Below are positions 2,660 to 50,069 of a DNA stretch of 55,128 nucleotides, one piece after another (position 1 is the first letter of the stretch; the number at the start of each line of letters is the position of its first letter). The notes under the pieces are model-generated. The model had not been told where the DNA came from. It ran no database searches and saw only the letters and a list, made by a program, of their open reading frames with translations. Source of the DNA: a virus (lineage: Duplodnaviria; Heunggongvirae; Uroviricota; Caudoviricetes). The stretch lies in the IMG/VR virus record IMGVR_UViG_2728369181_000005, one strand, 5' to 3'. The translations under genes and the position numbers were made by a program.

Positions 2660-2669
2660 TCAGTGGTTG

Positions 2670-2861: not shown

Positions 2862-3012
2862 ACCGCCCCCCGTTTATTATTTATCTCCTCAGCCAGCCGC
2901 TGGGCTTTCAGCGGATTTCGGATAACAGAAAGACCGTGAAATACCCAGCCTCGCTTTGTAACGGAGTAGACGAAAGTGATCGCGCCTACCCGGATATTAT
3001 CGTGAGGATGGG

Positions 3013-3693
3013 TCATCGCCATTGCTCTCCAAATACAAAACCAATTTCAGCCAGTGCTTCGTCCATTTTTTCGATGAACTCCGGCACCATCTCGTCAAAA
3101 CTCGCCATGTACTTTTCATCCCGCTCAACCACGACATAATGCAGGCCTTCACGCTTCATTCGTGGGTCATAGTTGGCAAAGTACCAGGCATCTTTTCGTG
3201 TCACCCACATGCTGTACTGCACCTGGGCCATGTAAGCCGACTTTATGGCCTCGAAACCACCGAGCCGGAACTTCATGAAATCCCGGGAGGTAAACGGGCA
3301 TTTCAGCTCAAGGCCATTGCCGTCACTGCATAAACCATCGGGAGAGCAGGCGGTGCGCATACTTTCGTCGCGATAGATGATCGGGGATTCAGTAACATTC
3401 ACGCCGGAAGTGAATTCAAACAGGGTTCTGGCGTCGTTCTCGTACTGTTTTCCCCAGGCCAGCGCCTTAGCATTAACTTCCGGAGCCACACCGGTGCAAA
3501 CCTCAGCCAGCAGGGTGTGGAAGTAGGACATTTTCATGTCAGGCCACTTCTTTCCTGAGCGGGGCTTTGCTATCACGTTGTGAACTTCTGAAGCGGTGAT
3601 GACGCCGAGCCGTAATTTGTGCCATGCATCATCCCCCTGTTCGACAGCTCTCACGTCGATCCCGGTACGCTGCAGGATAATGTCCGGTGTCAT
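3013..3693 (-). CDS. exo: Lambda exonuclease (Red-alpha)
   Basis: 226 aa, essentially identical to lambda Exo as recalled ([40 protein letters not shown]...). Confidence 0.97.
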
Positions 3694-16166: not shown

Positions 16167-17249
16167 TTAGAACTGATAAACCAGACCTACAGCGACGATG
16201 TCGTCGGTATCAATACCAGCTGTTTTGGTAAACTTACTATCGTCAATTAAGTTGATTTTGTAATCAACAAAAGTGGACATGTTTTTATTAAAGTAGTAAG
16301 TAGCACCGACATCGACATACTTGACTAAGTCTCGGTCACCATGAACACCAAGGTCTTTACCTTTTGACTGAAGGTAAGCAACAGATGGGCGCAGACCGAA
16401 GTCAAACTGATATTGTGCTACTGCTTCAAAGTTTTGTGCTTTGTTTGCAATATGGTTATTACCAAAAACGGTCATATTCTGAGTTTCAGAATATGTGGTA
16501 GCCAGATAGATATTGTTCGCATCATATTTCAGGCCTGCAGCCCATACTTCCGCATTTTTGCCGGAGGCATTGAATTTGCTCTTACCATAGGCGACCTGAC
16601 CGTCAGTGCGATCTGATTTAGCATAGGTTGCACCCACGCCGAATCCTTCATACTCATAAGTAGTGGAGAAACCGAAACCATCACCATTGGCTTCAGTTAC
16701 GTCAGTGCGGTCATTTTTACCCTGATACTGAGCAGCAAAGTTCAGGCCATCGACCAGACCAAAGAAGTCGTTGTTACGATAAGTTGCAACACCAGTAGTG
16801 CGACCAGTCATGAACACATCTGTTTGGGTCCAGGTATCACCACCGAATTCTGGCAGAACGTCAGTCCACGCACCGATGTCGTATGCTACACCGTAGTTAC
16901 GGCCGTAATCGATTGAGCCGTAATCACCAAATTTCAGGCCTGCAAATGCAAGACGGGTTTTGTCTTTGGAAGAACCTTGAGATTCAGCACGGTTGCCTTT
17001 GAATTCATATTCCCACTGACCGAAACCAGTCAGTTGATCGTTGATTTGGGTTTCACCTTTGAAGCCAAGACGGGCATAAGTAGTATCACCATCATCTGCA
17101 TCATTAGAGGAGAAGTAGTGCTTGGCATTAACTTTCCCGTATAGATCCAGCTTGTTACTGTCTTTATTATAAATTTCAGCTGCCTGAGCAGACATCGCCA
17201 TCAGTACTGATGCAGCTACAGCAGAAATTGCCACTGTTAATTTTTTCAT
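16167..17249 (-). CDS. nmpC: OmpC-family general porin (NmpC/Lc-type prophage porin)
   Basis: Signal peptide [23 protein letters not shown], porin hallmarks (AEIYNKD..., C-terminal ...VAVGLVYQF); opposite strand to flanking phage genes. Confidence 0.9.
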
Positions 17250-17675
17250 TGTACGCCCTTTTTTTGAACTATTATAAAAAAATGATGTCACTGCGCGATA
17301 AATATTCATCTAATCAATGTGATTATTTCAAGATGTAAGTTTTAGTTTCTCATTTAATTTGTGAAGTAGATCTCTATTTTTATCTGAACCTTTTCTATCT
17401 AATCCTATTCATAGCTCTTGTCTGAACAAAAATAAATCTATTAGCTAATTTATATTAATGGCACTTATTTATAAGTGCTCTATAATTCTTTAGCTTAATT
17501 TAAACAAACTAAAAATAACATCGGAAATTATTGACTGGTTATTTGTTGAAGTTTTCTTATGCATTTGTGGTGGTGTTTTGAACACTCGGTGGCATTCTCA
17601 CAAATATCATTTAGTAGTTTACGTACGTAAAAAATTGGTTATGCTGTTAAGAGTGGTTACTTCGTCACACAGCTT

Positions 17676-20618: not shown

Positions 20619-20889
20619 AAAAATGTCCGATAATTTTACTTTCTACCGCAGTTAGTTGATTCGTTGGTCCTGGTAGCACATTGGGCGAGGATTTAAATGC
20701 CAGGCAACTGAAGGATGATGTTGCAAGGGAGATAGCGAGAATATTTCTGATTTTCATTTGATGATGCCTCTGTGTGAAATGACGGTAAACGACGCACTTG
20801 TGCCGGCACATAATAGCAAGCACCATAATAGATCAGATTCGATTCTTGCTGTAAGTGATAATCATTCTCGTTTTTGGGTCCTTTCCGTC

Positions 20890-20960
20890 GATCCAACAGG
20901 TTACGGGGCGGCGACCTCGCGGGTTTTCGCTATTTATGAAAATTTTCCGGTTTAAGGCGT
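20890..20960. other. Prophage cos site (cosN 12-nt cohesive end at 20906-20917)
   Basis: CAGGTTACG|GGGCGGCGACCT|CGCGGGTTTTCGCTATTTATGAAAATTTTCCGG matches the lambda cohesive-end region, directly upstream of nu1. Confidence 0.9.
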
Positions 20961-21640: not shown

Positions 21641-25332
<3,692 letters not shown>

Positions 25333-25352
<20 letters not shown>

Positions 25353-26650
25353 TCTCCCGCATATTGCCAGCATGGCCTTTAATGAGCCGCTGATGCTTGA
25401 ACCCGCCTATGCGCGGGTTTTCTTTTGTGCGCTTGCAGGCCAGCTTGGGATCAGCCGCCTGACGGATGCGGTGTCCGGCGACAGCCTGACTGCCCAGGAG
25501 GCACCCGCGACGCTGGCATTATCCGGTGATGATGACGGACCACGACAGGCCCGCAGTTATCAGGTCATGAACGGCATCGCCGTGCTGCCGGTGTCCGGCA
25601 CGCTGGTCAGCCGGACGCGGGCGCTGCAGCCGTACTCGGGGATGACCGGTTACAACGGCATTATCGCCCGTCTGCAACAGGCTGCCAGCGACCCGATGGT
25701 GGACGGCATTCTGCTCGATATGGACACACCGGGCGGAATGGTGGCGGGAGCATTTGACTGCGCTGACATCATCGCCCGTGTGCGTGACATAAAGCCGGTA
25801 TGGGCGCTGGCCAACGACATGAACTGCAGTGCAGGTCAGCTGCTTGCCAGTGCCGCCTCCCGACGTCTGGTCACGCAGACCGCCCGGACAGGCTCCATCG
25901 GCGTCATGATGGCTCACAGTAATTACGGCGCTGCGCTGGAGAAACAGGGCGTGGAAATCACGCTGATTTACAGCGGCAGCCATAAGGTGGATGGCAACCC
26001 CTACAGCCATCTACCGGATGATGTCCGGGAAACACTGCAGTCCCGGATGGATGCAACCCGCCGGATGTTTGCACAGAAGGTGTCGGCATATACCGGCCTG
26101 TCCGTGCAGGCTGTGCTGGATACCGAGGCTGCAGTGTACCGCGGTCAGGAGGCCATTAATGCCGGACTGGCTGATGAACTTGTTAACAGCACCGATGCGA
26201 TCACCGTCATGCGTGATGCGCTGGATGCACGTAAATCCCGTCTCTCAGGAGGGCGAATGACCAAAGAGACTCAATCAACAACTGTTTCAGCCACTGCTTT
26301 GCAGGCTGACGTTACTGACGTGGTGCCAGCGACGGAGGGTGAAAACGCCAGCGCGGCGCAGCCGGACGTGAACGCGCAGATCACCGCAGCGGTTGCGGCA
26401 GAAAACAGCCGCATTATGGGGATCCTCAACTGTGAGGAGGCTCACGGACGCGAAGAACAGGCTCGCGTGCTGGCAGAAACTCCCGGTATGACCGTGGAAA
26501 CGGCCCGNNNNNNNNNNNNNNNNNNNNNNNNNNNNNNNNNNNNNNNNGTGACACTGCGCTGGATCGTCTGATGCAGGGGGCACCGGCACCGCTGGCTGCA
26601 GGTAACCCGGCATCTGATGCCGTTAACGATTTGCTGAACACACCAGTGTA
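25333..26650 (+). CDS. C: Head protease/scaffold protein C (Nu3 nested in frame)
   Basis: GTG start at 25333 (VTAELRNLPHIASMAF...) as in lambda C; N-run 26508-26547 inside; true stop TAA 26648-26650. Confidence 0.9.
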
Positions 26651-27048: not shown

Positions 27049-27293
27049 ATGTCGATGTTCACAACCGCCCAGCTGCTGGCGGCAAATGAGCAGAAATTTA
27101 AGTTTGATCCGCTGTTTCTGCGTCTCTTTTTCCGTGAAAGCTATCCCTTCACCACGGAGAAAGTCTATCTCTCACAAATTCCGGGACTGGTAAACATGGC
27201 GCTGTACGTTTCGCCGATTGTTTCCGGTGAGGTTATCCGCTCCCGTGGCGGCTCTACCTCCGAATTTACGCCGGGATATGTCAAGCCGAAGCA
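27049..27293 (+). pseudogene. E: Major capsid protein E, N-terminal fragment (gene split by island insertion)
   Basis: MSMFTTAQLLAANEQKFKFD...GYVKPKH matches the lambda gpE N-terminus, then reads into island DNA and stops at 27324. Confidence 0.9.
27284..27293. repeat. Left copy of 10-bp insertion core AGCCGAAGCA (attL core)
   Basis: Identical 10-mer at 38017-38026; the flanking bases differ, and joining the outer flanks restores a continuous E reading frame (VKPKHEVN). Confidence 0.8.
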
Positions 27294-27402
27294 CTTAGCA
27301 TGGCTTTCTGAGGCTTTCGTGTAGTTGCTGGTTTTTACACTTAATCTTTTGATAATAAAGAGTAAGTTTATCTGGCGCTTTCACTGGATTTTCCTCGTTA
27401 TC

Positions 27403-27441
27403 TGTGTGTTGCAATCATCTCTGTATTGCAGCTTGTATTGC
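27403..27441. repeat. TGT(A/G)TTGCA direct repeats at island left end (candidate integrase arm sites)
   Basis: TGTGTTGCAA, TGTATTGCAG, TGTATTGC within 39 bp just upstream of the island int start; same motif at 37920-37940. Confidence 0.5.
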
Positions 27442-27456
27442 TTTTTGGGGCTAAAA

Positions 27457-28692
27457 ATGGCTGGCGAGAACAAACTGAGCGACAAAGCACTTAAAGGATA
27501 TCTGGGGAAACCTAGAGAAAAGCAGATCACCATTGCTGATGGAAAGGGGCTTTCTATTCGTGTGAGTACCAAGGGGGCTGTGAGCTTTGTTTTCTTCTAC
27601 AGGTTAGCAGGTGGCCGGGCTGCTCCGGTCTGGCTAACGTTGGGTAAATATCCTGATATGTCACTCAAACAGGCAAGGGAAAAGCGCGACGAGTGCCGTG
27701 GTTGGTTGGCTGACAAACGTGATCCGCGTATTCAGATTAAGATTCAGGCTGAAGAACGCTTAAAGCCGGTCACAGTGGAGGATGCACTAAATTACTGGTA
27801 TGAAAATTACTGTAAGGTGCGTCGTAAAACTCATGCTGTAACGCTTGGCAGATTTCGAAAGCATATCTTTCCCTATATCGGTCATTTGCCCGTAAATGAC
27901 ACTCACCTATATGAATGGCTGGACTGTTTTGACCGAATTAAACGTAATGCACCAGTTATGGCGGCGTATGTTTTTTCTGACACTAAATTAGCTCTTCGTT
28001 TTTGTCGGGTACGCCAGTACGCGACGTGTGATGCTTTAAAGGATTTGCGCATGAGTGATGTGGGGCAGATTGCAGGTAAGCGGGATCGGGTTCTGGATGA
28101 AGCCGAACTGGGCCAGCTCTGGAAGGCAATTTTTGTCGAGCCTGATTTAAAACTAATGTCTGAATACACGCGAAAAATGTTTGTGCTTTGTACAGTATTT
28201 GGATGTCGAATGAGTGAAGCCCGATTATCAGAATGGAGCGAATGGGATCTAGAAAGTTGGGTTTGGACTGTACCGAAAGATCACTCAAAAACTGGTGTTG
28301 AAATTGTCAGGCCAGTACCTGAAATTCTACGGCAGTGGGTAACGGATGTTCACGAAGAGACAAAACATACTGGTTATGTGCTGGGAAGTCTGCGAATTAG
28401 AGAAAGCGTAAGCAAGATTGGGGGGAAAATCGGTAAACGTTTGGGCCATGAAAAACAATGGTCACTACACGACCTTAGAAGAACGCTATCTACTCATCTA
28501 AGTGATCTCGGTGTTGAATTTTATGTAGTAGAACAACTGTTAGGCCATGCGCTACCTGGCGTGGCAGGTGTTTACAACCGGAGTAAGTTTATGGCTAAAA
28601 AACTGGATGCTCTGGAACTCTGGACTACATATCTCAATAGCATCGCAGCTGCTGATTCAAAAGTGACAATCCTCAAACAAAAGGCTGGTTAG
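27457..28692 (+). CDS. int: Tyrosine integrase (P4-like family) of the island
   Basis: Start MAGENKLSDKALKGYLGKP...; C-terminal catalytic region with HDLRRT...LGH...Y; first gene at island left end. Confidence 0.88.
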   Translation: MAGENKLSDKALKGYLGKPREKQITIADGKGLSIRVSTKGAVSFVFFYRLAGGRAAPVWLTLGKYPDMSLKQAREKRDECRGWLADKRDPRIQIKIQAEERLKPVTVEDALNYWYENYCKVRRKTHAVTLGRFRKHIFPYIGHLPVNDTHLYEWLDCFDRIKRNAPVMAAYVFSDTKLALRFCRVRQYATCDALKDLRMSDVGQIAGKRDRVLDEAELGQLWKAIFVEPDLKLMSEYTRKMFVLCTVFGCRMSEARLSEWSEWDLESWVWTVPKDHSKTGVEIVRPVPEILRQWVTDVHEETKHTGYVLGSLRIRESVSKIGGKIGKRLGHEKQWSLHDLRRTLSTHLSDLGVEFYVVEQLLGHALPGVAGVYNRSKFMAKKLDALELWTTYLNSIAAADSKVTILKQKAG

Positions 28693-28693
28693 C

Positions 28694-28915
28694 ATGAAAA
28701 AAATGGCAATTGTTGATAAAAAGGGGCTGGAGTACATTCCTAACATTGACCGAATGATCCGTGAGAAAGAATGTCGGGAGCTAACCACTCTTGCGAACAG
28801 CACACGCTGGAAGCTTGAAAAGGAGGGGAAATTCCCCAAGCGAATCAAAATCGGATCTACGGCGGTGGCTTATAGACTCTCTGAGATTCAAGCTTGGATA
28901 AGAGGTGAATGGTAA
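28694..28915 (+). CDS. AlpA-family transcriptional regulator / excisionase-like
   Basis: 73 aa with AlpA-type HTH; directly follows the integrase. Confidence 0.7.
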   Translation: MKKMAIVDKKGLEYIPNIDRMIREKECRELTTLANSTRWKLEKEGKFPKRIKIGSTAVAYRLSEIQAWIRGEW

Positions 28916-28941
28916 GTTAGGGAGGTATTCCTCCCTATATC

Positions 28942-29625
28942 TTACAGGAAATTTTTTAAATCAGGGTTTTTTCCAAATGCGCTCTTATAATATACTGTTG
29001 CAATCTCGTTAAAAATAGTTTTTATATCATCGGTAACCACTATTGTTGCTACGCGCAAATCTTTTTGATATTCATTTAAATCTGGAGGGGTATAGTCCAA
29101 TAGCGTTGATTTATCCAAGATTAAATGTTCTAACATGGCATAGCGCTCAATCAATGTTTTATAAAAATGATATTGATTTTCACTGTTAGCATGTGCACAG
29201 TTTATTGCAAGTAAATACGTTATTTCATTATCTAGATGTGCACGGACAAGGCTTGTATAGGTTTTTTTACGATCTAGATCAAAGGGATGGTATCCAGCAT
29301 TTTCATCAATGAACTTCAATAGATGATATAATATTCTGAAGTAGCTTCCAAAAACAGCATCATGATTGTGCATCAGTGTATTAGTGTCTTTTAAAGAAAC
29401 CAATCCATTCATCATTTTATTAATTAACTCTGAGTAATTTGATTTTTTTCTAAGATCATTTAGAGCATTGTTATGTTGAGATAACATGAGAGAAAATGTT
29501 GATTCAAAAGATGATTGCTTTTTAGCAATTAATGCAACTAACACTGCTGTGCAAGTCCCGAGTGCCACGAAGAAATTTATAATGTTTGATGCAGTGAATA
29601 CAGCATCGTCAGGAGTTGGAGTCAT
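28942..29625 (-). CDS. Hypothetical AT-rich membrane-anchored protein (candidate accessory/defence gene)
   Basis: 227 aa; N-terminal hydrophobic helix FFVALGTCTAVLVALIA; very AT-rich; follows the small regulator at 29658-29852 on the same strand. Confidence 0.45.
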   Translation of the reverse strand: MTPTPDDAVFTASNIINFFVALGTCTAVLVALIAKKQSSFESTFSLMLSQHNNALNDLRKKSNYSELINKMMNGLVSLKDTNTLMHNHDAVFGSYFRILYHLLKFIDENAGYHPFDLDRKKTYTSLVRAHLDNEITYLLAINCAHANSENQYHFYKTLIERYAMLEHLILDKSTLLDYTPPDLNEYQKDLRVATIVVTDDIKTIFNEIATVYYKSAFGKNPDLKNFL

Positions 29626-29657
29626 TTGAATATCCTATTCAATAAAAATTAAAAAAA

Positions 29658-29852
29658 TTAGCCTTTAGGTTCTATACCTTTACGGCGAAGCTCAGCACGA
29701 ACTAATTCTTTAATCCAATTGGCCAAGCTCATTCCTTCCTGAGCTGCTGATTCAGCCATCTGTTCTTTGAGTTCAGGATTGATTCGGATCTGAAACGCAG
29801 GGGCTTTGCCGGCTCCTTTTGGCTGCTTATCTCTTTGAATTGTAGTTGACAT
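29658..29852 (-). CDS. Small ribbon-helix-helix-like DNA-binding protein
   Basis: 64 aa; FQIRINPELKEQMAESAAQEGMSLANWIKELV fits an RHH (Arc/CopG-like) pattern. Confidence 0.45.
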   Translation of the reverse strand: MSTTIQRDKQPKGAGKAPAFQIRINPELKEQMAESAAQEGMSLANWIKELVRAELRRKGIEPKG

Positions 29853-29988
29853 GTGTGTACCTATTGCTTAGCATCAGTGTTGAATAGGTACACACATTAA
29901 CATGATGTTATACCTATAAACAACGCCCTAGGGTGCTCGCAACACACCTAGGGCGTCTAACCACAAACCGTTAACTGGAGTAACGACT

Positions 29989-30354
29989 ATGGCTGGAACA
30001 CAGCATACCCAAACTCACCCTAAATTTATATACATCTTTCTGGCGCTACATCGCGATCGCATAGCAGATGGAGCAACTACGGTACATGTAGCCGCTGACA
30101 CGCTGGTTGATGCGCGCAAGATGGTTAAGGAGATGGGCTATACTGCGGCTTTCTGGAAAGGGCGGGAAGAAAACACGCTGTTTATTCAGAAATGTGAAAA
30201 CAATTTCATCTGGCGTTTTATCGCCCTGAGTACGGCACAACCGCGCGTGATTACCATCGAGGCCACCAGCGAACAGGAAGCCCGCCAGCAATCCCCAACT
30301 GGCTGCGTGATGATATTCGCCGCCCGTATTCGTCAGGAGGTGTGCCATGAATGA
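29989..30354 (+). CDS. Hypothetical protein (possibly Icd-like)
   Basis: 121-codon ORF at the start of the island rightward operon; Icd-like assignment is from memory and weak. Confidence 0.3.
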   Translation: MAGTQHTQTHPKFIYIFLALHRDRIADGATTVHVAADTLVDARKMVKEMGYTAAFWKGREENTLFIQKCENNFIWRFIALSTAQPRVITIEATSEQEARQQSPTGCVMIFAARIRQEVCHE

Positions 30355-30571
30355 TCTTTATTTTAAAGTGCTGACACATGCTGAAAACGCGCTCGTTTGT
30401 GGCAAAAATATGCGAGAAATCTTATCAACCTGGCTTGATGGGACAACAAATGCGGAACACGATGAACGGGATGCTAATTTAGCTGGAGCGTTAATTACGT
30501 TACTTGATCCTGTCATCAAAGAGTTGGATGAAGCTATAAAAATACACGACCAGAGCTATACCGGAGAATAA
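30347..30571 (+). CDS. Hypothetical protein
   Basis: 74-codon ORF overlapping neighbours. Confidence 0.35.
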   Translation: MNDLYFKVLTHAENALVCGKNMREILSTWLDGTTNAEHDERDANLAGALITLLDPVIKELDEAIKIHDQSYTGE

Positions 30572-30574
30572 AAA

Positions 30575-30862
30575 ATGAAAAATAAATTTTCTGGCTTTAT
30601 TGCCAGCGGTCAAACTCATTCAAAAATCAGCCTTGGGGATATTTTCAAAGACAGCTATGGCTATCGGGTAAAGATTATTTCGGTTGATGATCGTCGTGTC
30701 TCTTATTTGCGTGATGGTTATGATTTTGAATGTGTTATGCCGCGTCAGCAGTTCGAAAGAGATTTCATTCTGGTAAAAAATTGCAAGACAGATAATCAGA
30801 GGCGTGCCGCAGGCTATATCCGTAAAATTCGGGCAATGTTAGTTGCCGGAGGTAACAAATGA
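30575..30862 (+). CDS. Hypothetical protein
   Basis: 95-codon ORF; ATGA overlap with the primase gene. Confidence 0.35.
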   Translation: MKNKFSGFIASGQTHSKISLGDIFKDSYGYRVKIISVDDRRVSYLRDGYDFECVMPRQQFERDFILVKNCKTDNQRRAAGYIRKIRAMLVAGGNK

Positions 30863-32679
30863 AACGTGCTCCGAACTTAAAATACCAACCGCGCGACAAA
30901 ATGACGGAAGTCATCATTTTTGCTGGCAGTGATGCCTGGAGCCATGCAAAAGAATGGAATGAATGGGCAGGTAAGCATATTGCAGCAGATGATACACCAC
31001 CAGTCATTCTGGGTACGGAACAACTGGAAAACCTGGATGATATGCAAATTATCGATGAAGGCCGTCATTATGTGCGTGTTTATCGTGCCGGAAAGATTGC
31101 AGAGAAAAGTCTGACGAAGGTTGCGACATTACTTGCTATTGCAGGCGTAAAGGAAGCACGTTGTTACCGTAGCTTTGTTGATCGAGAGCCTGAAGACTGG
31201 ACTCCGCGCCTTGTCGGCCTAAAAGCTGAAGCGGAGCATGGGGAAAGTCTGGTGATTGAACTGCCAGTGAAGAAGGCAGAGCGCAAAAATGACGAGCGTG
31301 CTTCATCTTTGGCGTTGAATCAGATGGGGGCCAGCCAGCGCGGTGAAGTTCTCCTTGCACATTACGGCGGCGAACTGGCAATCAATGCCGACTCTGACAC
31401 CGTTCATCATTACAACGGCGTTGTATGGGAGCCGGTTCAGGATAAAGAGTTACAGCGTGCTATGGCGCAGATTTTCATTGATGCGGAGATCAGCTATTCG
31501 CAGAACGCTATTAAATCGGCGGTAGATACCATGAAGTTAAGTTTGCCTGTAATGGGGAATACAGCCCGTAACCTGATTGGATTCAGTAACGGGGTATTTG
31601 ATACCAGAACTGGTAATTTTCGGGAGCATAACAAAAACGACTGGTTGTTAATTGCCAGTGAATTACCTTTCAGCCCACCAGCAGAGGGGGAAACGCTGGC
31701 AACACATGCGCCGAATTTCTGGAAGTGGTTGCGCCGTTCGGTGGCTGATAATGACCGCAAGGCAGATCGCGTACTGGCGGCATTATTCATGGTGCTGGCG
31801 AACCGGTACGACTGGCAGTTATTCATTGAGGTAACAGGGCCGGGGGGAAGTGGTAAAAGTGTGATGGCGGAGATTTGCACCATGCTGGCGGGTAAGGCGA
31901 ATACAGTATCAGCAAGCATGAAGGCGCTGGAAGATGCAAGGGAACGTGCGTTAGTGGTTGGCTTTTCGCTGATTATCATGCCGGATATGACCCGCTACGC
32001 TGGTGATGGGGCAGGGATTAAGGCCATTACAGGCGGTGACAAGGTGGCAATTGACCCGAAACACAAAGCCCCCTATTCAACGCGTATTCCGGCAGTAGTG
32101 CTGGCGGTTAACAATAACGCCATGTCATTCAGTGACCGCAGCGGGGGGATCTCACGTCGTCGGGTGATATTCAATTTTTCGGAAGTTGTACCGGAGAACG
32201 AACGCGATTCGATGCTGGCGGAAAAAATAGAAGGTGAGCTGGCGGTAGTGATTCGCCATCTGCTTACACGGTTTGCTGATCAGGACGAAGCCAGACGCCT
32301 GTTATATGAGCAGCAGAAATCTGAAGAAGCACTGGCGATAAAGCGAGAGGGGGATTCGCTGGTGGACTTCTGCGGCTATCTCATGGCATCGGTAATGTGT
32401 GATGGCCTGTTAGTGGGTAATGCTGAAATTGTGCCATTCAGCCCACGCAGGTATCTCTATCATGCCTATCTGGCTTATATGAGGGCACATGGGTTTGGTA
32501 AACCTGTAACACTGACGCGCTTCGGTAAAGATATGCCGGGGGCAATGGCGGAATATGGCAGGGAGTATATGAAACGGAAAACGAAGCACGGTTTGCGTTC
32601 AAACGTGACACTGACGGAGGAATCAGAAGACTGGATGCCATCATGTGTATCGGTCACTAATGACGATAGCAAAAATTAA
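30859..32679 (+). CDS. Primase-helicase (P4 alpha-like replication protein)
   Basis: 606 aa; Walker A GPGGSGKS and Walker B-like FSLIIMPDM in the C-terminal half; followed by an iteron array. Confidence 0.85.
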   Translation: MKRAPNLKYQPRDKMTEVIIFAGSDAWSHAKEWNEWAGKHIAADDTPPVILGTEQLENLDDMQIIDEGRHYVRVYRAGKIAEKSLTKVATLLAIAGVKEARCYRSFVDREPEDWTPRLVGLKAEAEHGESLVIELPVKKAERKNDERASSLALNQMGASQRGEVLLAHYGGELAINADSDTVHHYNGVVWEPVQDKELQRAMAQIFIDAEISYSQNAIKSAVDTMKLSLPVMGNTARNLIGFSNGVFDTRTGNFREHNKNDWLLIASELPFSPPAEGETLATHAPNFWKWLRRSVADNDRKADRVLAALFMVLANRYDWQLFIEVTGPGGSGKSVMAEICTMLAGKANTVSASMKALEDARERALVVGFSLIIMPDMTRYAGDGAGIKAITGGDKVAIDPKHKAPYSTRIPAVVLAVNNNAMSFSDRSGGISRRRVIFNFSEVVPENERDSMLAEKIEGELAVVIRHLLTRFADQDEARRLLYEQQKSEEALAIKREGDSLVDFCGYLMASVMCDGLLVGNAEIVPFSPRRYLYHAYLAYMRAHGFGKPVTLTRFGKDMPGAMAEYGREYMKRKTKHGLRSNVTLTEESEDWMPSCVSVTNDDSKN

Positions 32680-32690
32680 ACTTATGGAAT

Positions 32691-32916
32691 AACTGTTCAC
32701 CACTGTTCACCCTGTCATAAATATCTTTTATATCAGTATATTATAGGGTGAACAGTTATTTATGAACTGTTCACCAAACTATTCACTGTTCACCTTTTTG
32801 ATTGTTTATTGAGCTTCAAGGGTGAACAGTGGTGAACAGTTGGTGAATAGTTTTTGTGAAACTGTTCACCCATTAACATTATGAATTAAAAGAGAAAATA
32901 TCAAAAGGTGAACAGG
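32691..32916. repeat. Island replication-origin iterons
   Basis: About ten copies of ACTGTTCACC / GGTGAACAGT in both orientations immediately after the primase stop. Confidence 0.8.
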
Positions 32917-32966
32917 TGAAGGGTTAAAACGCAAAAATTTTAATTTACTGCTGTGAGATAAAGCCT

Positions 32967-33212
32967 ATGACAGCGAAGCACACAAAAAAATCACAATCGC
33001 ACGCCCTTGATTTGACGGAACACTGGTTAAGGGTGTCGATAAAAATCATCGACCGCAACGCCGGGGAAGGATACGCGAAAGCACATCCCGAACTGATTAG
33101 CGCATTCATGACAACGGCGGCTGCAAACTTTGCCACTCTGACCGAACGGGAGATTGCTGAAGCGGAGGAAGTGACAACAATCAATATTAAGTCCGGAGAG
33201 CAGGCAGCATGA
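32967..33212 (+). CDS. Hypothetical protein
   Basis: 81-codon ORF after the iteron array. Confidence 0.35.
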   Translation: MTAKHTKKSQSHALDLTEHWLRVSIKIIDRNAGEGYAKAHPELISAFMTTAAANFATLTEREIAEAEEVTTINIKSGEQAA

Positions 33213-33658
33213 CGGCGCAAATATCAGTTTACGGGCGGTTGGTGGACGACCCGCAGACAAAACAGACCAGCAAGGGCACCCCCATGACGCTGGCGCGTAT
33301 GGCGGTATCACTGCCCTGCAGTCAGTCGGATGACGGTCAGGCGACGATGTGGTTATCTGTCCTGGCGTTTGGCAGACAAGCCGACGCACTGGCAAAGCAT
33401 CACAAAGGCGAACTCCTGAGCGTGGCGGGTAACATGCAGATGAGCCAGTGGACTGGACAGAACGGCGAAACGCGGCAGGGCTGGCAGGTTATCGCAGACA
33501 GCGTAATCAGTGCGCGATCGGTGCGACCGGGCGGCAAAAAAGGCCAACAGGGGCAGGCTACTGACGCACTGAACAGAGCAAAACAACAGGCAGATCAGCA
33601 AGGAAGCCAGCCACCAGTGGGAGATAATGAGCAATGGGGAGATGATATCCCGTTTTAA
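33209..33658 (+). CDS. Single-stranded DNA-binding protein (SSB-like)
   Basis: N-terminal OB-fold pattern ISVYGRLVDDP...ARMAVSL...WLSVLAFG; Gln/Gly-rich tail ending DDIPF. Confidence 0.7.
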   Translation: MTAQISVYGRLVDDPQTKQTSKGTPMTLARMAVSLPCSQSDDGQATMWLSVLAFGRQADALAKHHKGELLSVAGNMQMSQWTGQNGETRQGWQVIADSVISARSVRPGGKKGQQGQATDALNRAKQQADQQGSQPPVGDNEQWGDDIPF

Positions 33659-33875
33659 ATATTGCCAATAAAAAAAGGCCGGAAAAAATAAATTTTCCGG
33701 CATGCTACATAAATCCCGACCAAAGGGAGTGAAGATATTAACACTAATTGTCCGCACTGAAGTTGTCACCCCAAAACTTTATACAACATTGCACTTGGTT
33801 GCATGTGTTCGCATGACAAATATCGGTGGTAGCATATATCCACAATTATTTTTAATGAATGCAAAGAGGATGCGT

Positions 33876-34916
33876 ATGGTTGATTTATATTCGCCTACTC
33901 AGCTTGTACAGGTGGTTAATGCTGTAGATGTACAAAAACAACTAAATGCGTTGTTTACCAGTTTGTTTTTTACTCGCTCGGTAATGTTTGAATCGCGCGA
34001 TATTATTCTTGATACAATCGACGATCCAAATATCCCAATTGCAGCGTTTTGTTCTCCTATGGTGGGTAGTAAAGTTTCACGTGACGAAGGGTACGAATCA
34101 AAAACAATTCGTCCAGGCTATATGAAGCCGAAAAGCAGCATTGATCCAAATAAGTTAGCTGTGCGCCCTGCTGGTGTATCACCTGAGCAATACAATGCTT
34201 TTGGGGCGCGTAATATTAAAGTTAAACAGGCGATTGTAAATCAAGCTAAAGCTATTCGTGCACGTATTGAATGGCTTGCTGTTCAGGCAATCACAACGGG
34301 GAAAAATATCATTGAGGGCGATGGTATTGAACGTTATGAGCTGGACTGGAATATTAAACCACAAAATATCATCACTCAGTCTGGCGGTGCTGAGTGGTCA
34401 GGTAAGGATAAAGAAACTTTTGATCCAAATGATTATATTGAGAGCTACGCAGAATTTAGTGAGGGCGTCACTAATATTATCATTATGGGCGGTAATGTAT
34501 GGAAGAAATACCGTTCATTCAGAGCAATAAAAGAGGCTCTGGATACCCGTCGTGGTTCTAATTCCGAACTGGAAACGGCCCTTAAAGACCTTGGTGATTC
34601 GGTGAGTTTTAAAGGGTATATGGGCGATGTTGCGATTGTTGTTTACAGCGGGCGTTATACCGACGAGGACGGAACAGAAAAACATTTCCTTGATCCTGAT
34701 TTGATGGTGCTTGGCAATACGGCTCTTCAGGGGATTGTCGCCTATGGCGGTGTTCAGGATCCGGAGCTAATCCGAATGGGGCTGACTAAAGCCGAACTTG
34801 CACCGAAAAACTATATTGTGCCTGGTGATCCGGCTATTGAATATGTGCAGACACATTCAGCACCACAGCCAATACCGGCCCGCATCAATCGTTTTGTTAC
34901 CGTTCGCATTGGCTAA
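33876..34916 (+). CDS. Island-encoded major capsid protein (lambda gpE-like)
   Basis: AAGAGGA SD before ATG 33876; aligns with lambda E (GYMKPK vs GYVKPK; ITQSGGAEWSGKDKETFDPNDYIESYA; DTRRGSNSELETA; GDVAIVVYSG). Confidence 0.8.
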   Translation: MVDLYSPTQLVQVVNAVDVQKQLNALFTSLFFTRSVMFESRDIILDTIDDPNIPIAAFCSPMVGSKVSRDEGYESKTIRPGYMKPKSSIDPNKLAVRPAGVSPEQYNAFGARNIKVKQAIVNQAKAIRARIEWLAVQAITTGKNIIEGDGIERYELDWNIKPQNIITQSGGAEWSGKDKETFDPNDYIESYAEFSEGVTNIIIMGGNVWKKYRSFRAIKEALDTRRGSNSELETALKDLGDSVSFKGYMGDVAIVVYSGRYTDEDGTEKHFLDPDLMVLGNTALQGIVAYGGVQDPELIRMGLTKAELAPKNYIVPGDPAIEYVQTHSAPQPIPARINRFVTVRIG

Positions 34917-34925
34917 GGGGGAGCA

Positions 34926-35267
34926 ATGGCTACTCATTACACTGAACTCATGGCTGGCACTGAAGCACTGGTGACTACGCTGGGGATATTTTCAGCTAAT
35001 AAAGGGGTAATTCCTGCATTTACGCCACTGATGCAGGAAGATGCAACAGGTGCACTGGTGGTATGGGATGGTTCGAGCGTAGGTAAAGCGGTTTATGTTT
35101 CCGCTGTACAAATCGACACCGCGAAAAAAACACAGGCTCAGGTCTATAAGACAGGTGTCTTAAATGTTGATGCTCTGAACTGGCCTGAGTCTGTTAAAGA
35201 ACTGTCAGTAAAGGTTGCAGCGTTTGTTGGCTCAGGTATTTCTGTTCAGCCGCTGGCTCGTGTGTAA
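34926..35267 (+). CDS. Island-encoded decoration protein (lambda gpD-like)
   Basis: 113 aa; LVVWDGSSVGKAV parallels lambda [14 protein letters not shown]; same length class. Confidence 0.6.
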   Translation: MATHYTELMAGTEALVTTLGIFSANKGVIPAFTPLMQEDATGALVVWDGSSVGKAVYVSAVQIDTAKKTQAQVYKTGVLNVDALNWPESVKELSVKVAAFVGSGISVQPLARV

Positions 35268-35278
35268 AGGGGGATACA

Positions 35279-35662
35279 ATGCAGAATGATTACAATGACC
35301 TTAAGCCAATTGCCGAAATGATGTACCCGAATCCAGCTGTAGAGGAATTAAAAGCTATCGCTGACAAAATGTGTTTAAGCGAGCGCCTTGTTGATATGAA
35401 TCAGGTGATGGAAATTACAACCCTGAGTCGTCGTACACTGCTAAACCTTGAGGCTAGTGGAGAGTTCCCGGAGCGTGTGCAGGTTACGGAAGGGCGTAAG
35501 GCCTGGTATTTAAGTGAAGTGATCGACTGGATAAATAATATTCCTCGCGCTTCTGAATATTGCCGCGTACCTGTCCCAAAAAAGCCAGATGCGGCGCTAT
35601 GCCTCAAGATTGAGCGTGTACGCCGCAATGCACGGGATGGTCGCTATAAGCTGATTGGTTGA
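35279..35662 (+). CDS. AlpA-type HTH domain protein (possible packaging/regulatory factor)
   Basis: 127 aa; C-terminal half carries an AlpA-like HTH (MNQVMEITTLSRRTLLNLEASGEFPERV). Confidence 0.5.
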   Translation: MQNDYNDLKPIAEMMYPNPAVEELKAIADKMCLSERLVDMNQVMEITTLSRRTLLNLEASGEFPERVQVTEGRKAWYLSEVIDWINNIPRASEYCRVPVPKKPDAALCLKIERVRRNARDGRYKLIG

Positions 35663-35689
35663 TGAAATTAGGGCCCGCTCTGGCTGGCG

Positions 35690-35770
35690 GGTCCTTTCCG
35701 GTGATCCAGAACGTTACGGGGCGTCAGGCGCGCGGGTTTTCGCTATTTATGAGCATTTTAAGGGGACTGG
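35690..35770. other. Island cos-like site with divergent cosN core (35718-35729)
   Basis: GGTCCTTTCCGGTGATCCAGAACGTTACG|GGGCGTCAGGCG|CGCGGGTTTTCGCTATTTATGA: flanks match the prophage cos, the 12-nt core differs at about five positions. Confidence 0.7.
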
Positions 35771-35878
35771 TGGTGGTTTTGTTGTTCGCTATATCTGTAT
35801 GAATAATAAGAGAAAAATACAATCAATACACCAACCTGAAACAGTAATTAAGTTGTGGTATCAATGAAATTACACCTG

Positions 35879-36406
35879 ATGAACAAAAAAAACATGGCAA
35901 AAAGTTGCCGTGTAAGCGCCACTGCGTTCGATAAGTGGGGAGTGATTCCCGTCGAGCGTAAGGGCCGTGAGGCGTTCTATGATGTTGCCAGTGTAATAGA
36001 TAATCGGGTTAACAATGCAATCAGCCAGATTACAAACGAAACGGGCGATATTGATGACGATGAACTTTTACGCGTCAGGATCAGATTACTGACAGCACAG
36101 GCAGAGGCGCAGGAGCTTAAAAACGAGCGCGAACGCGGCGACGTTATTGATACAGAGTTTTGTATGTATGTTCTTTCCAAACTGGCGAGTCAGATTTCAT
36201 CTATCATGGACAGCCTGCCGCTTACCATGCAAAGGCGCTTCCCACAGATGACTCCGGCTATGCTGGATGGACTTAAAAAGGAAGTGGCTAAAGCCTGTAA
36301 TGCCAGTGCCGGCGTTGCTGACAACCTCCCACAGATACTGGCTGATTATCTGATGGAAAGTACAGGAAACGTACCGGATAAGTTGCAGCTGAATAAGGAT
36401 AAGTAA
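35879..36406 (+). CDS. Island small terminase (Nu1-like, diverged)
   Basis: Aligns with lambda Nu1 (VIPVERKGREAFYDV vs MPVLRGGGKGNEVLYD; AQAEAQELKNERERGDVIDTEFC vs AQADAQELKNARDSAEVVETAFC); start codon choice (35864/35879/35894) uncertain. Confidence 0.7.
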   Translation: MNKKNMAKSCRVSATAFDKWGVIPVERKGREAFYDVASVIDNRVNNAISQITNETGDIDDDELLRVRIRLLTAQAEAQELKNERERGDVIDTEFCMYVLSKLASQISSIMDSLPLTMQRRFPQMTPAMLDGLKKEVAKACNASAGVADNLPQILADYLMESTGNVPDKLQLNKDK

Positions 36407-36417
36407 CGTAGTACGCT

Positions 36418-36693
36418 ATGACTGAATCCGAACTACTGAAAGTAATCTGCCATGCTGGTGGAGTCAGCCACCAGCATGACGAACAGGCCACGCAGCCGGG
36501 CAGTGTCACCGCTGAAAATTACGCTCGTGTGGTTGCTGAGGTTATGTGGCGTGACGGTATAGAACTGAACGGACAGGATTGCTTAGTCATCCGCACCAAA
36601 GTGCTGGCTATACTGGCAGCTAGGCGGAGGCAGGGACAACGCCAGAACGTTGCATCGTACCAGTGGAAGAAGCCTGACAGACTGCGGCGATAA
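36418..36693 (+). CDS. Hypothetical protein
   Basis: 91-codon ORF following the TerS-like gene. Confidence 0.35.
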   Translation: MTESELLKVICHAGGVSHQHDEQATQPGSVTAENYARVVAEVMWRDGIELNGQDCLVIRTKVLAILAARRRQGQRQNVASYQWKKPDRLRR

Positions 36694-37095
36694 CTCTTTG
36701 ATTTTCTCGACGGCCCCAAAATGGGCCTTACCATAGCCAGCTAATAAATGAGCAAGCCTCAAAAGTGAGGTTTGTGGCCGTTTGGCCTATTCATATGCTA
36801 ACTCGTTGATATTCCTGACGACGCAAATTTACGCCTTGTGGCTGGTAGTCGAATTGCAAATTTGCAACTCGACTATGAAACTACAGGTAGTTTGGGTAGT
36901 AAAAGCAACACACTGATTTTGGGGCTTCTTCGCGATACCTAATATTATGGTATCGGTGGAAGAGATATCGTTTCTCATAGGTTAGCACCGAGGGCGGAGT
37001 TCCGCCCTCATCGAAAAATTGCTTACGAGTCGTCAAAATAAATTAATCGACTGAGTATAATGATTAACTAATTGCTCGTGTTACTTCATTATACG

Positions 37096-37857
37096 TTATT
37101 TCCCATCTTTAAGGTTTAACCAAGTGTTAATTAAAAAAAGAGCCATTGAGCCTGATAAATTTACTGCAAGTTCGGCATGCCTTGGGGATGGCTTAATTGA
37201 TGAGCTGTTCGTTCCATGTGCATCACCGAGTTTATTACGAAGAGTACCTAACCCATTTACAACTGCAGAACAACCGCCGAGAATTTGTTTGAAGATATTT
37301 TCAGTATGTTGGTCGGCAGATAGGTTAAGTTCTTTTGAAAGAGTTTTATAAAGCTCTGACATTTCAATATTTTTATTATTATACTGAATGCCCATATCAT
37401 CAAGAATGTGTTTGCAAACTGTTTCAAGAAGTGTTCTTGCGGAGGTTATCGCACCATCCGGATCTGTATGGCGCCGTTCAAGTGCTTTTATCCAAACGGC
37501 GTGGACTCCATCCTCGTTAAACTTTCTTAATACATCAGATATGTCTTCATCCGCTGGAGCTTTATTTTTCCCTTCTAGATAGTCCAGCATCGGCTGAAAT
37601 GCCTTATAAATCAAATCTCTCCGGGGGGCATACTTTTCAGTCTTTTTTATAAATCCCCAAAATTCTTTTAGTGAGCGATTAGTTCTCACAAACTCTGGTA
37701 ATAGCTGATGTAAAGGAGGATTTTGTAAGAAATATGTTCTTAGAAGCAAATAATCATTATTAGCTTCATCCTGGGCTCCTGTAGCTCTTGCAATTAGTAT
37801 GTTTTGAAGCGCTACTGCGCGCTCTAGGTCATTTTGAAGGGTATCTATAATATTCAT
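37096..37857 (-). CDS. Abortive-infection-like protein (Abi_C/HEPN-type motif)
   Basis: 253 aa, AT-rich, opposite strand at the island right end; C-terminal GTLRNKLGDAHG (R-x6-H) matches the Abi_C/HEPN signature as recalled. Confidence 0.6.
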   Translation of the reverse strand: MNIIDTLQNDLERAVALQNILIARATGAQDEANNDYLLLRTYFLQNPPLHQLLPEFVRTNRSLKEFWGFIKKTEKYAPRRDLIYKAFQPMLDYLEGKNKAPADEDISDVLRKFNEDGVHAVWIKALERRHTDPDGAITSARTLLETVCKHILDDMGIQYNNKNIEMSELYKTLSKELNLSADQHTENIFKQILGGCSAVVNGLGTLRNKLGDAHGTNSSSIKPSPRHAELAVNLSGSMALFLINTWLNLKDGK

Positions 37858-37919
37858 AACAAATCTTTATTCACTTCATTTGTGGGTTGATAATTGAATG
37901 GTTTGTACATTGATTTCTG

Positions 37920-37940
37920 TGTATTGCAGTGTGTATTGCA
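37920..37940. repeat. TGTATTGCA direct repeats at island right end
   Basis: TGTATTGCAG and TGTATTGCA, same orientation as the left-end copies. Confidence 0.5.
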
Positions 37941-38016
37941 ACATAGCCATTCAGGTAGAGATTATGCTCTATTTTTCCTCTTATATCATTCACATACTTA
38001 CACCATTGACTCATGT

Positions 38017-38026
38017 AGCCGAAGCA
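38017..38026. repeat. Right copy of 10-bp insertion core AGCCGAAGCA (attR core)
   Basis: Identical to 27284-27293. Confidence 0.8.
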
Positions 38027-38807
38027 TGAGGTGAATCCGCAGATGACCCTGCGTCGCCTGCCGGATGAAGATCCACAGAATCTGGCGGATCCGGCTTACC
38101 GTCGCCGTCGCATCATCATGCAGAACATGCGTGACGAAGAGCTGGCCATTGCCCAGGTCGAAGAGATGCAGGCAGTTTCTGCCGTGCTTAAGGGCAAATA
38201 CACCATGACCGGTGAAGCCTTCGATCCGGTTGAGGTGGATATGGGCCGCAGTGCGGCGAACAACATCACGCAGTCCGGCGGTACGGAGTGGAGCAAGCGT
38301 GACAAGTCCACGTATGACCCGACCGACGATATCGAAGCCTACGCGCTGAACGCCAGCGGTGTGGTGAATATCATCGTGTTCGATCCGAAAGGCTGGGCGC
38401 TGTTCCGTTCCTTCAAAGCCGTCAGGGAGAAGCTGGATACCCGTCGCGGCTCTCATTCTGAGCTGGAGACAGCGGTGAAAGACCTGGGTAAAGCGGTGTC
38501 CTATAAGGGGATGTATGGCGATGTGGCCATCGTCGTGTATTCCGGACAGTACGTGGAAAACGGTGTCAAAAAGAACTTCCTGCCGGACAACACGATGGTG
38601 CTTGGGAACACTCAGGCACGCGGTCTGCGCACCTATGGCTGTATTCAGGATGCGGATGCATTGAGTGAGGGTATTAATGCGTCTCCCCGTTATCCGAAAA
38701 ACTGGAAGACATCCGGCGATCCGGCGCGTGAGTTCACCATGATTCAGTCAGCACCGCTGATGCTGCTGGCTGATCCTGATGAGTTCGTGTCCGTACAACT
38801 GGCGTAA
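38020..38807 (+). pseudogene. E: Major capsid protein E, C-terminal fragment
   Basis: PKHEVNPQMTLRRLPDEDPQNL... to ...DEFVSVQLA matches lambda gpE from residue ~83 onward; no start of its own. Confidence 0.9.
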
Positions 38808-42193: not shown

Positions 42194-44776
42194 ACCGGTA
42201 GGCGATCTGGTCGTTGATTTGAGTCTGGATGCGGCCAGATTTGACGAGCAGATGGCCAGAGTCAGGCGTCATTTTTCCGGTACGGAAAGTGATGCGAAAA
42301 AAACAGCGGCAGTCGTTGAACAGTCGCTGAGCCGACAGGCGCTGGCTGCACAGAAAGCGGGGATTTCCGTCGGGCAGTATAAAGCCGCCATGCGTATGCT
42401 GCCTGCACAGTTCACCGACGTGGCCACGCAGCTTGCAGGCGGGCAAAGTCCGTGGCTGATCCTGCTGCAACAGGGTGGTCAGGTTAAGGACTCCTTCGGC
42501 GGGATGATCCCCATGTTCCGGGGGCTTGCCGGTGCGATCACCCTGCCGATGGTGGGGGCCACCTCGCTGGCGGTGGCGACCGGTGCGCTGGCGTATGCCT
42601 GGTATCAGGGCAACTCAACCCTGTCCGATTTCAACAAAACGCTGGTCCTTTCCGGCAATCAGGCGGGACTGACGGCAGATCGTATGCTGGTCCTGTCCAG
42701 AGCCGGGCAGGCGGCAGGGCTGACGTTTAACCAGACCAGCGAGTCACTCAGCGCACTGGTCAAGGCGGGGGTAAGCGGTGAGGCTCAGATTGCGTCCATC
42801 AGCCAGAGTGTGGCGCGTTTCTCCTCTGTATCCGGCGTGGAGGTGGACAAGGTCGCTGAAGCCTTCGGGAAGCTGACCACAGACCCGACGTCGGGGCTGA
42901 CGGCGATGGCACGCCAGTTCCATAACGTGACGGCGGAGCAGATTGCGTATGTTGCTCAGTTGCAGCGTTCCGGCGATGAAGCCGGGGCATTGCAGGCGGC
43001 GAACGAGGCCGCAACGAAGGGGTTTGATGACCAGACCCGCCGCCTGAAAGAGAACATGGGCACGCTGGAGACCTGGGCAGAGAGGACAGCGCGGGCATTC
43101 AAATCCATGTGGGATGCGGTGCTGGATATTGGTCGTCCTGATACCGCGCAGGAGATGCTGATTAAGGCAGAGGCTGCGTTTAAGAAAGCAGACGACATCT
43201 GGAATCTGCGCAAGGATGATTATTTTGTTAACGATGAAGCGCGGGCGCGTTACTGGGATGATCGTGAAAAGGCCCGTCTTGCGCTTGAAGCCGCCCGAAA
43301 GAAGGCTGAGCAGCAGACTCAACAGGACAAAAATGCGCAGCAGCAGAGCGATACCGAAGCGTCACGGCTGAAATATACCGAAGAGGCGCAGAAGGCTTAC
43401 GAACGGCTGCAGACGCCGCTGGAGAAATATACCGCCCGTCAGGAAGAACTGAACAAGGCACTGAAAGACGGGAAAATCCTGCAGGCGGATTACAACACGC
43501 TGATGGCGGCGGCGAAAAAGGATTATGAAGCGACGCTGAAAAAGCCGAAACAGTCCGGCGTGAAGGTGTCTGCGGGCGATCGTCAGGAAGACAGTGCTCA
43601 TGCTGCCCTGCTGACGCTTCAGGCAGAACTCCGGACGCTGGAGAAGCATGCCGGAGCGAATGAGAAAATCAGCCAGCAGCGCCGGGATTTGTGGAAGGCG
43701 GAGAGTCAGTTCGCGGTACTGGAGGAGGCGGCGCAACGTCGCCAGCTGTCTGCACAGGAGAAATCCCTGCTGGCGCATAAAGATGAGACGCTGGAGTACA
43801 AACGCCAGCTGGCTGCACTTGGCGACAAGGTCACCTATCAGGAGCGCCTGAACGCGCTGGCGCAGCAGGCGGATAAATTCGCACAGCAGCAACAGGCAAA
43901 ACGGGCCGCCATTGATGCGAAAAGCCGGGGGCTGACTGACCGGCAGGCAGAACGGGAAGCCACGGAACAGCGCCTGAAGGAACAGTATGGCGATAATCCG
44001 CTGGCGCTGAATAACGTCATGTCAGAGCAGAAAAAGACCTGGGCGGCTGAAGACCAGCTTCGCGGGAGCTGGATGGCAGGCCTGAAGTCCGGCTGGAGTG
44101 AGTGGGAAGAGAGCGCCACGGACAGTATGTCGCAGGTTAAAAGTGCAGCCACGCAGACCTTTGATGGTATTGCACAGAATATGGCGGCGATGCTGACCGG
44201 CAGTGAGCAGAACTGGCGCAGCTTCACCCGTTCCGTACTGTCCATGATGACAGAAATTCTGCTTAAGCAGGCAATGGTGGGGATTGTCGGGAGTATCGGC
44301 AGCGCCATTGGCGGGGCTGTTGGTGGCGGCGCATCCGCGTCAGGCGGAACAGCCATTCAGGCAACTGCGGCGNNNNNNNNNNNNNNNNNNNNNNNNNNNN
44401 NNNNNNNNNNTTTGCGACCGGGGGATTTACGGGAACCGGCGGCAAATATGAGCCAGCGGGGATTGTTCACCGTGGTGAGTTTGTCTTCACGAAGGAGGCA
44501 ACCAGCCGGATTGGCGTGGGGAATCTCTACCGGCTGATGCGCGGCTATGCCACCGGTGGTTATGTCGGTACACCGGGCAGTCTGGCTGACAGCCGGTCGC
44601 AGGCGTCCGGGACGTTTGAGCAGAATAACCATGTGGTGATTAACAACGACGGCACGAACGGGCAGATAGGTCCGGCTGCTCTGAAGGCGGTGTATGACAT
44701 GGCCCGCAAGGGTGCCCGTGATGAAATTCAGACACAGATGCGTGATGGTGGCCTGTTCTCCGGAGGTGGACGATGA
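42186..44776 (+). CDS. H: Tape measure protein H (interrupted by an assembly gap)
   Basis: Long coiled-coil protein matching lambda gpH; N-run 44373-44410 breaks the apparent frame; C-terminus continues to 44776. Confidence 0.9.
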
Positions 44777-49800: not shown

Positions 49801-50069
49801 GTTCTGTTTCGCGGTGGTAAGCATGAAAACTTCAACAGCAACAACCAACAGTCATACTGGTATTCAACCTGTAAGCTGCANNNNNNNNNNNNNNNNNNNN
49901 NNNNNNNNNNNNNNNNNNNNNNNNNNNNNNNNNNNNNNNNNNNNNNNNNNNNNNNNNNNNNNNNNNNNNNNNNNNNNNNNNNNNAAATAACTGGACGCCA
50001 ACGACCAGTATCAGCGACCTTCTTGTTGTCGTGATGAAGAAATCAACAGCCGGCATCAGTATCAGTTGA
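46801..50069 (+). pseudogene. J: Central tail fibre / host-specificity protein J, 5'-truncated, with two assembly gaps
   Basis: Homology to lambda gpJ begins at PEGFESSGSETVLGTEVKYD (about 85 residues into J as recalled) with no start codon nearby; N-runs at 46924-46997 and 49881-49984; C-terminal receptor-binding region diverges from lambda. Confidence 0.7.

Follow-up and report, generated by a model that had tools for sequence, protein, structure and literature searches.

An HE-PICI satellite in a lambdoid prophage's major capsid gene E: a conserved target site, and an island capsid gene with probably no role in site choice

The arrangement that comes closest to the locus considered here, a satellite lodged inside the capsid gene of its own helper and delaying production of the helper capsid until the satellite has left, was described, surveyed and partly tested in 2023 (Tommasini, Mageeney & Williams 2023, PMC10111431). 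The type element 11capE (Eco567.11capE) is an 11-kb PICI in capsid gene E of the prophage 50icd of E. coli NRG857c; the insertion site, of which 201 instances are given, is named E:Phage_cap_E:80 and is marked by a 10-bp block of identity between attL and attR. On either side of the attP centre lies a doubled motif, tgTGTATTGCantgTGTATTGCa, at a distance of 81 +/- 2 bp on the upstream side and 132 +/- 2 bp on the downstream side. The supplement gives 'agccgaagca' as the identity block of many members of the group, with aacccaagca also occurring, and places helpers at icd, ybhC, thrS and proP; a segment of the cos region is reported to be common to satellite and helper. Upon induction of the type element, as followed by qPCR and sequencing, excision of the composite is succeeded by its replication and then by excision of the satellite. 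The same paper sets the att site against both lambda E and the capsid homologue of the island (its Figure 1A), and comments that the sequence differences in that homologue would probably prevent self-integration (PMC10111431).

EcCICFT073 and other Gram-negative PICIs share with the island described below an int-alpA-pri layout, a size of about 10-20 kb and lambdoid helpers, and they often carry a capsid homologue (PMC10111431). Elements of the EcCICFT073 type, however, occupy chromosomal sites, interact with their helpers only in trans and are without the doubled TGTATTGC motif. The Ccm protein of SaPIbov5 offers a further parallel, being a satellite homologue of the helper major capsid protein; Ccm redirects the size and shape of the capsid, and SaPIbov5, unlike the island in question, is not inserted in its helper (PMC8569155).

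The DNA analysed (the window) is the whole stretch of 55,128 nucleotides of the IMG/VR virus record IMGVR_UViG_2728369181_000005. The DNA surrounding the island is that of a lambdoid prophage, with a lambda-type Int at the start of the window followed by O, Nu1, portal, C protease and D; C and D lie just upstream of E, and tail genes lie downstream of it. Over its full length the helper E can be aligned with lambda-type E sequences, to which it is 96-98% identical, and its RefSeq matches are annotated as major capsid protein. The features of the interrupted gene and of the island are as follows, in window positions.

27049-27293, + strand: 5' fragment of E, the major capsid gene of the helper (codons 1-82, with GYVKPK(H) at its end); fusion with the 3' fragment restores a 341-aa E
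27284-27293, + strand: attL copy of the 10-bp identity block AGCCGAAGCA, which has two copies only and appears in the published supplement as 'agccgaagca'
27294-38016, + strand: body of the HE-PICI satellite, between the repeats; the island side of attL matches 11capE at 94/96 positions
27420-27442, + strand: doubled motif TGTATTGCnnnnTGTATTGC of the P' arm, starting 131.5 bp downstream of the core centre
27457-28692, + strand: tyrosine integrase, by domain matches to Arm-DNA-bind_3 and Phage_integrase
28694-28915, + strand: AlpA-family regulator/excisionase
28942-30354: putAbiC/RHH/repressor-like zone of the island; putAbiC and the RHH protein, like Abi_C near the right end, are encoded on the - strand, opposite to E
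30859-32679, + strand: D5-type primase/helicase (PICI pri)
33209-33658, + strand: SSB
33876-34916, + strand: Phage_cap_E capsid homologue (Pfam E = 6.7e-40), likely start at 33876 (MVDLYS...); its segment equivalent to the att site is GGCTATATGAAGCCGAAAAGCAGC
34926-35267, + strand: homologue of the gpD head-decoration protein (HDPD, E = 4.5e-15)
35279-35662, + strand: second AlpA-like protein
35689-35759, + strand: 71-nt stretch, candidate cos region, 83% identical to helper 20876-20946, upstream of the helper Nu1
35855-36406, + strand: Nu1-like small-terminase homologue (Pfam E = 1e-24; PHROG terminase small subunit E = 3e-53)
37918-37940, + strand: doubled motif TGTATTGCnnnnTGTATTGC of the P arm, ending 81.5 bp upstream of the core centre
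38017-38026, + strand: attR copy of AGCCGAAGCA, within the near-palindrome CTCATGT-AGCCGAA-GCATGAG
38027-38807, + strand: 3' fragment of helper gene E, codons 83-341; fusion restores E
Predicted junctions after excision: restored attB in E, GTCAAGCCGAAGCATGAG; attP, CATGTAGCCGAAGCACTTAG

The ATG of the lambda-type gene E lies at 27049, and its frame runs through GGA TAT GTC AAG CCG AAG CAC (G-Y-V-K-P-K-H, 27274-27294) and on into island sequence, ending at a stop codon at 27322-27324. The open reading frame at 27049-27324 is made up, in essence, of the 5' part of E, nine foreign codons and the stop. The direct repeat AGCCGAAGCA has exactly two copies in the 55-kb window, 10,733 bp apart, and when the island is removed in silico by fusing 27049-27293 to 38027-38807, an uninterrupted E of 341 residues results. 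A sequence-only reading of this DNA had placed the cut in E at the GYVKPKH codons and the GYMKPK of the island capsid gene at the aligned position; the reading frame, the repeat and a global alignment bear out both statements.

The island is a member of the published group E:Phage_cap_E:80 of helper-embedded phage-inducible chromosomal islands (HE-PICIs) and is in that sense already known; among the published sites of the family, the one it occupies is the commonest (PMC10111431). E is split at about codon 80, and int, alpA, pri and the capsid gene lie on the + strand, as does E itself; the identity block, in both copies, falls at the K-P-K-H codons of E; and the doubled motif has exactly two matches, against 0.04 expected, at 81.5 bp from the core centre on its upstream side and 131.5 bp on its downstream side. 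The 94 identities to Eco567.11capE are found within the 96 nt of island sequence that reach from attL up to the int gene. With that element the window island shares the target codon in E, doubled TGTATTGC motifs at -81/+132, the int-alpA-pri-capsid layout over about 11 kb and possession of its own Phage_cap_E gene. The two differ in the core allele, which is AGCCGAAGCA in the window and AACCCAAGCA in Eco567.11capE, both being present in the supplement of PMC10111431; in the right-end cargo, which is Abi_C in the window island, with sequence left of attR unlike that of Eco567.11capE; and in the Nu1-like gene of the window island, 11capE being without terS according to PMC10111431.

Over its 10.7 kb, the island follows the order of zones of a Gram-negative PICI, in which int and alpA are succeeded by the regulatory, pri and late zones, and its genes for Int, AlpA, primase, capsid protein, gpD-like protein and Nu1-like protein are all co-oriented with E. 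The Nu1-like protein may be an Rpp-like packaging-redirection factor. The 71-nt stretch resembling helper DNA sits just upstream of the Nu1-like gene and is likely to be a cos region. Two abortive-infection-like genes are located one near each end of the island, putAbiC at 28942-29625 and Abi_C at 37096-37857, both on the - strand. A simple and rather crude scan, to which little weight should be attached, found no + strand terminator between the 5' fragment of E and int.

Phage lambda integrates by means of an arm-binding tyrosine integrase at an att site in which arm-type sites flank the core, with an overlap of about 7 bp where the strands are exchanged. The window island resembles lambda in its arm-binding integrase, its flanking arm sites and a putative overlap of roughly the same length, whereas its arm motif differs and it targets a late gene of a phage, not an intergenic site on the chromosome. 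Also unlike the lambda situation, the attP of the window island carries no replacement sequence, and the target gene is therefore disrupted. A vestigial fragment of E in the left arm of attP was considered and attributed to chance; by eye, about 6 of 19 positions match the stretch of E to the left of the core, and the region is unconserved among islands.

Several other features of the window deserve mention. A full-length Gram-negative porin gene (Porin_1, E = 2e-151) occupies 16167-17309 on the - strand, between the early/lysis region and cos. At the right end, 53245-55128 (- strand) encodes 627 residues of an OLD-family protein, with an AAA_21/AAA_15 ATPase and an OLD-like TOPRIM, before running off the window; it is a defence-type gene located at the tail end of the prophage or in its flank. 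Five runs of N, of 40-104 bases (23001-23059, 26508-26547, 44373-44410, 46934-46997 and 49881-49984), interrupt the helper terminase A region, the C protease and tail genes, and look masked rather than biological. Sequences 95-100% identical to E also occur on short, low-coverage contigs under the names of Chromatium, Neobacillus, Kitasatospora, Bradyrhizobium, Akkermansia and others (loci L004-L020 and L035-L073 of genome_contigs); contamination of public assemblies with lambda control DNA is the most likely reason for the presence of E on contigs of such unrelated organisms.

Of 5,426 complete E. coli genomes, 173 contain the junction between the 5' fragment of E and int. The sequence-only reading had suggested a search for the island family in other E genes, with the prospect that it might be found solely at unrelated insertion sites; the search instead located it at the same site in these 173 genomes, and in Kosakonia and Raoultella, too, E genes have related islands at that site. 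Many of the E. coli junctions are 98-99% identical, as would be seen had a single chance insertion into E, with no site specificity, been inherited vertically with the prophage. Taken as a whole, however, the junctions span E alleles that are 68-96% identical in nucleotides, several genera, varied cargo and different core variants, and the helpers have been mapped at several chromosomal sites (PMC10111431). The Abi_C right end of the window island is found in only 46 of the 173 junction-positive genomes, and the spacing of the arm motifs is precisely conserved. Descent from one such accident is, in our judgement, so improbable that it can almost be dismissed. At least 80% of the window island is present in 40 of the 173 genomes, and together with the count for the right end this leads us to conclude that the cargo is variable and the site is fixed. 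Same-site variants covering 83% of the window island have an annotated TIR-domain gene, the cargo having been swapped.

A similar picture is obtained from IMG/VR. All 68 of the loci whose Int is at least 89% identical and whose left flank can be read are at the same E site, their left ends preceded by TPGYVKPKH or, in one instance, TPSYVKPKH. A scan of IMG/VR for the island left end returned 57 contigs, again all behind TPGYVKPKH but for one with TPSYVKPKH.

For the motif shared by E and the capsid gene of the island, the sequence-only reading had offered two accounts, shared ancestry and a choice of site guided by homology, of which the first is supported and the second is not. The island capsid protein passes the gathering threshold of Pfam Phage_cap_E (PF03864) with 137.6 bits against a cut-off of 22.9, and in a global alignment with E is identical at 141 of 349 positions, or about 40%. 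Its GYMKPK, encoded by GGC TAT ATG AAG CCG AAA at 34116-34133, occupies the same alignment columns as the GYVKPK of E. Among 18 E homologues of 68-96% nucleotide identity GYVKPKHE is invariant, and homologues only about 40% identical to E still have AYVKP. The coincidence of such a motif with the insertion point goes only weakly beyond chance, because some 21% of the columns in the alignment of E with the island capsid belong to blocks in which 5 or more of 6 residues are identical. Across the 18 homologues, GYVKPKHE ranks in the top 1.5% of 8-aa windows, and the core as nucleotides only in the top 15%, its conservation being modest because third codon positions vary. The idea of an attB unusually conserved as DNA was ruled out on this ground; the constraint is on the level of the protein.

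The second account supposes that the GY(V/M)KPK segment brings the island to E, whether by homologous recombination or by a pairing of sequences that steers the integrase. It could draw on an exact run of 8 nt, AAGCCGAA, common to both capsid genes at aligned codons, and on the presence in the island capsid gene of all seven bases of the putative overlap, AGCCGAA, although we estimate that conservation of K-P-K and E. coli codon usage would give such a 7/7 match roughly one time in eight. The attP that recombines is, however, formed by the int and Abi ends of the island, with the capsid motif some 6.8 kb away. When the island capsid gene is aligned with the core, as the sequence-only reading had advised, 7 of 10 positions match (AGCCGAA does and GCA does not) and none of the next 8 nt does so. 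This is unexceptional for two genes that are 48% identical in nucleotides by codon alignment: 240 of the 1,038 10-nt windows (23%) equal or beat the core window, and the longest exact runs, of 14, 12 and 10 nt, lie elsewhere, the best being in the DTRRGS and MVLGN regions. A BLASTN comparison of island and helper at word size 7 found no similarity at the core, matches being confined to a 136-nt segment in the C-terminal part of the capsid gene (34511-34645 in the island, 38405-38539 in the helper) and to the cos-like 71-mer. The junction itself does not have the form of a homology-directed insertion, since it lies at the island ends and not in the island's capsid gene, its identity is limited to 10 bp (effectively 7), and the island capsid gene bears no similarity to the flanks of the core.

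Evidence from islands at other sites points in the same direction. Islands whose integrases are only 53%, 42-44% and 25-27% identical to that of the window also have this capsid gene, with an aa identity of at least 97% and the same GYMKPKSS codons; one of them has portal gene B as its insertion site, and another (L219) is chromosomal, beside an rcnR-like gene. In addition, the K-P-K codons of island capsid genes do not covary with the att core. Guidance of the island to its site by homology with its capsid gene is thus extremely unlikely. The island in portal gene B (L196, positions 1-3200) has a capsid gene 98% identical in amino acids and an Int only 53% identical, and is inserted in a lambda-type B after ...QSAIVKA; with a doubled TGTATTGC motif upstream of its int, it is an HE-PICI at another late-gene site.

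The mismatch between the two capsid genes beside the core admits a converse interpretation, namely that the island gene has been selected to diverge from E at the att site and so to block insertion of the island into itself. The AAGCAGC to the right of AGCCGAA in the island gene is indeed unlike the conserved B' side GCATGAG of E, and the comment on self-integration in PMC10111431, cited above, is of this kind. Moreover, an attL within an island-type capsid gene (TAYATGAARCCNAAGCACTTAGCAT) gave 0 hits in the IMG/VR scan, compared with the 57 contigs having an E-type left end. Yet islands that rely on other integrases have this capsid allele too, with identical codons, and the divergence is therefore not specific to islands that target E; and with the genes only 48% identical overall, a mismatched flank is the default expectation. 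Selection for self-avoidance consequently appears highly unlikely to us.

The preferred reading, to which we assign a probability of about 0.9, is that the island is an HE-PICI of the group E:Phage_cap_E:80 inserted in the prophage E by its integrase at a K-P-K attB, with its own capsid gene playing no role in the choice of site. Some detail of that site can be gained from 48 related elements with both att sites (among IMG/VR loci L075-L141), in which the attL and attR cores are concordant in 34 cases and discordant in 14. At core position 8, attL has G without exception, and six attR have A, matching the AAA allele of E. This one-way discordance assigns positions 8-10 to the arms, and the base to the left of the core always differs, being A in E and T in the island; exchange would then fall within positions 1-7, A(G/A)CC(N)AA. 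Strand exchange is thus likely to occur in these 7 bp, AGCCGAA in the window, which correspond to the K-P-K codons. The cut reported by the sequence-only reading can be refined to match, as the six attR with the E allele at position 8 suggest that phage-derived sequence ends within AAG CCG AA and that the 'H' codon of attL is already island DNA.

At positions 2 and 5, in contrast to position 8, disagreement of attL with attR runs both ways (5 and 3 cases), and the core variants on the island side, AGCCGAA, AACCCAA, AGCCTAA, AGCCCAA and AGCCAAA, are synonymous alleles of E. Discordance may have arisen either by exchange across slightly mismatched overlaps or by later homologous recombination between composite prophages. 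The E genes of E. coli have either AAG CCG or AAA CCC here, as synonymous alleles, and both kinds have islands in them.

At the attR of the window (38008-38033), CTCATGT-AGCCGAA-GCATGAG makes up an almost perfect inverted repeat; the elements of Kosakonia and Raoultella retain this pattern, with CTCATGT ... ACATGAA and ACACGAG (L034 and L074, each at about 2990-3015). At attL the palindrome is much weaker, TATGTCA-AGCCGAA-GCACTTA. Speculatively, the arms of attR and attL may be strong and weak core-type half-sites for the integrase. A fuller model, in which exchange takes place over 7 bp in the K-P-K codons, attR possibly unites two strong half-sites, and the overlap follows the E allele of the host, is tentative, and we lean somewhat against its being right in all of its parts. 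The identity blocks concerned (aagca, agccgaa and others) are already given in the supplement of PMC10111431; the parts of that paper on which we draw do not include such an interpretation.

On the preferred reading, the island tyrosine integrase would recombine an attP made up of the island ends, with doubled TGTATTGC motifs at -81 and +132, site-specifically with the attB in E, where exchange would take place in the K-P-K codons within the 10-bp repeat. E would then stay split until the island is excised, which would delay synthesis of the helper capsid. Being co-oriented with E and located in late-gene DNA, the island would be placed downstream of helper late transcription, and could be carried along by helper replication and late transcription. 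Int, probably together with AlpA, would excise the island and restore E, as in the type element. Excision is a prediction for the window element, with the order of events and the dependence on the helper carried over by analogy from the published work on the type element.

The island capsid gene would be an old paralogue, about 40% identical to E and of the same Phage_cap_E family, that contains GYMKPK because the motif is a conserved feature of that family. The integrase would make use of a stretch of E that is constrained as protein and is therefore widely available as a target, a suggestion that agrees with the att-site logic in PMC10111431. At the level of sequence, there is support for shared ancestry, in combination with a conserved target, as the explanation of the motif coincidence.

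To the arrangement described in 2023, the present analysis adds a clear negative on homology-guided targeting, and narrows the likely region of exchange to the K-P-K codons. It also has a bearing on annotation: where a 'major capsid protein' gene of an E. coli prophage is split, with an integrase between the parts, it should be taken for an HE-PICI insertion and not for a pseudogene. If the discordant cores do stem from mismatched overlaps, the integrase tolerates overlap heterology and attP is rewritten by the helpers; were this so, a rewritten attP would help the satellite to follow capsid genes as they diverge.
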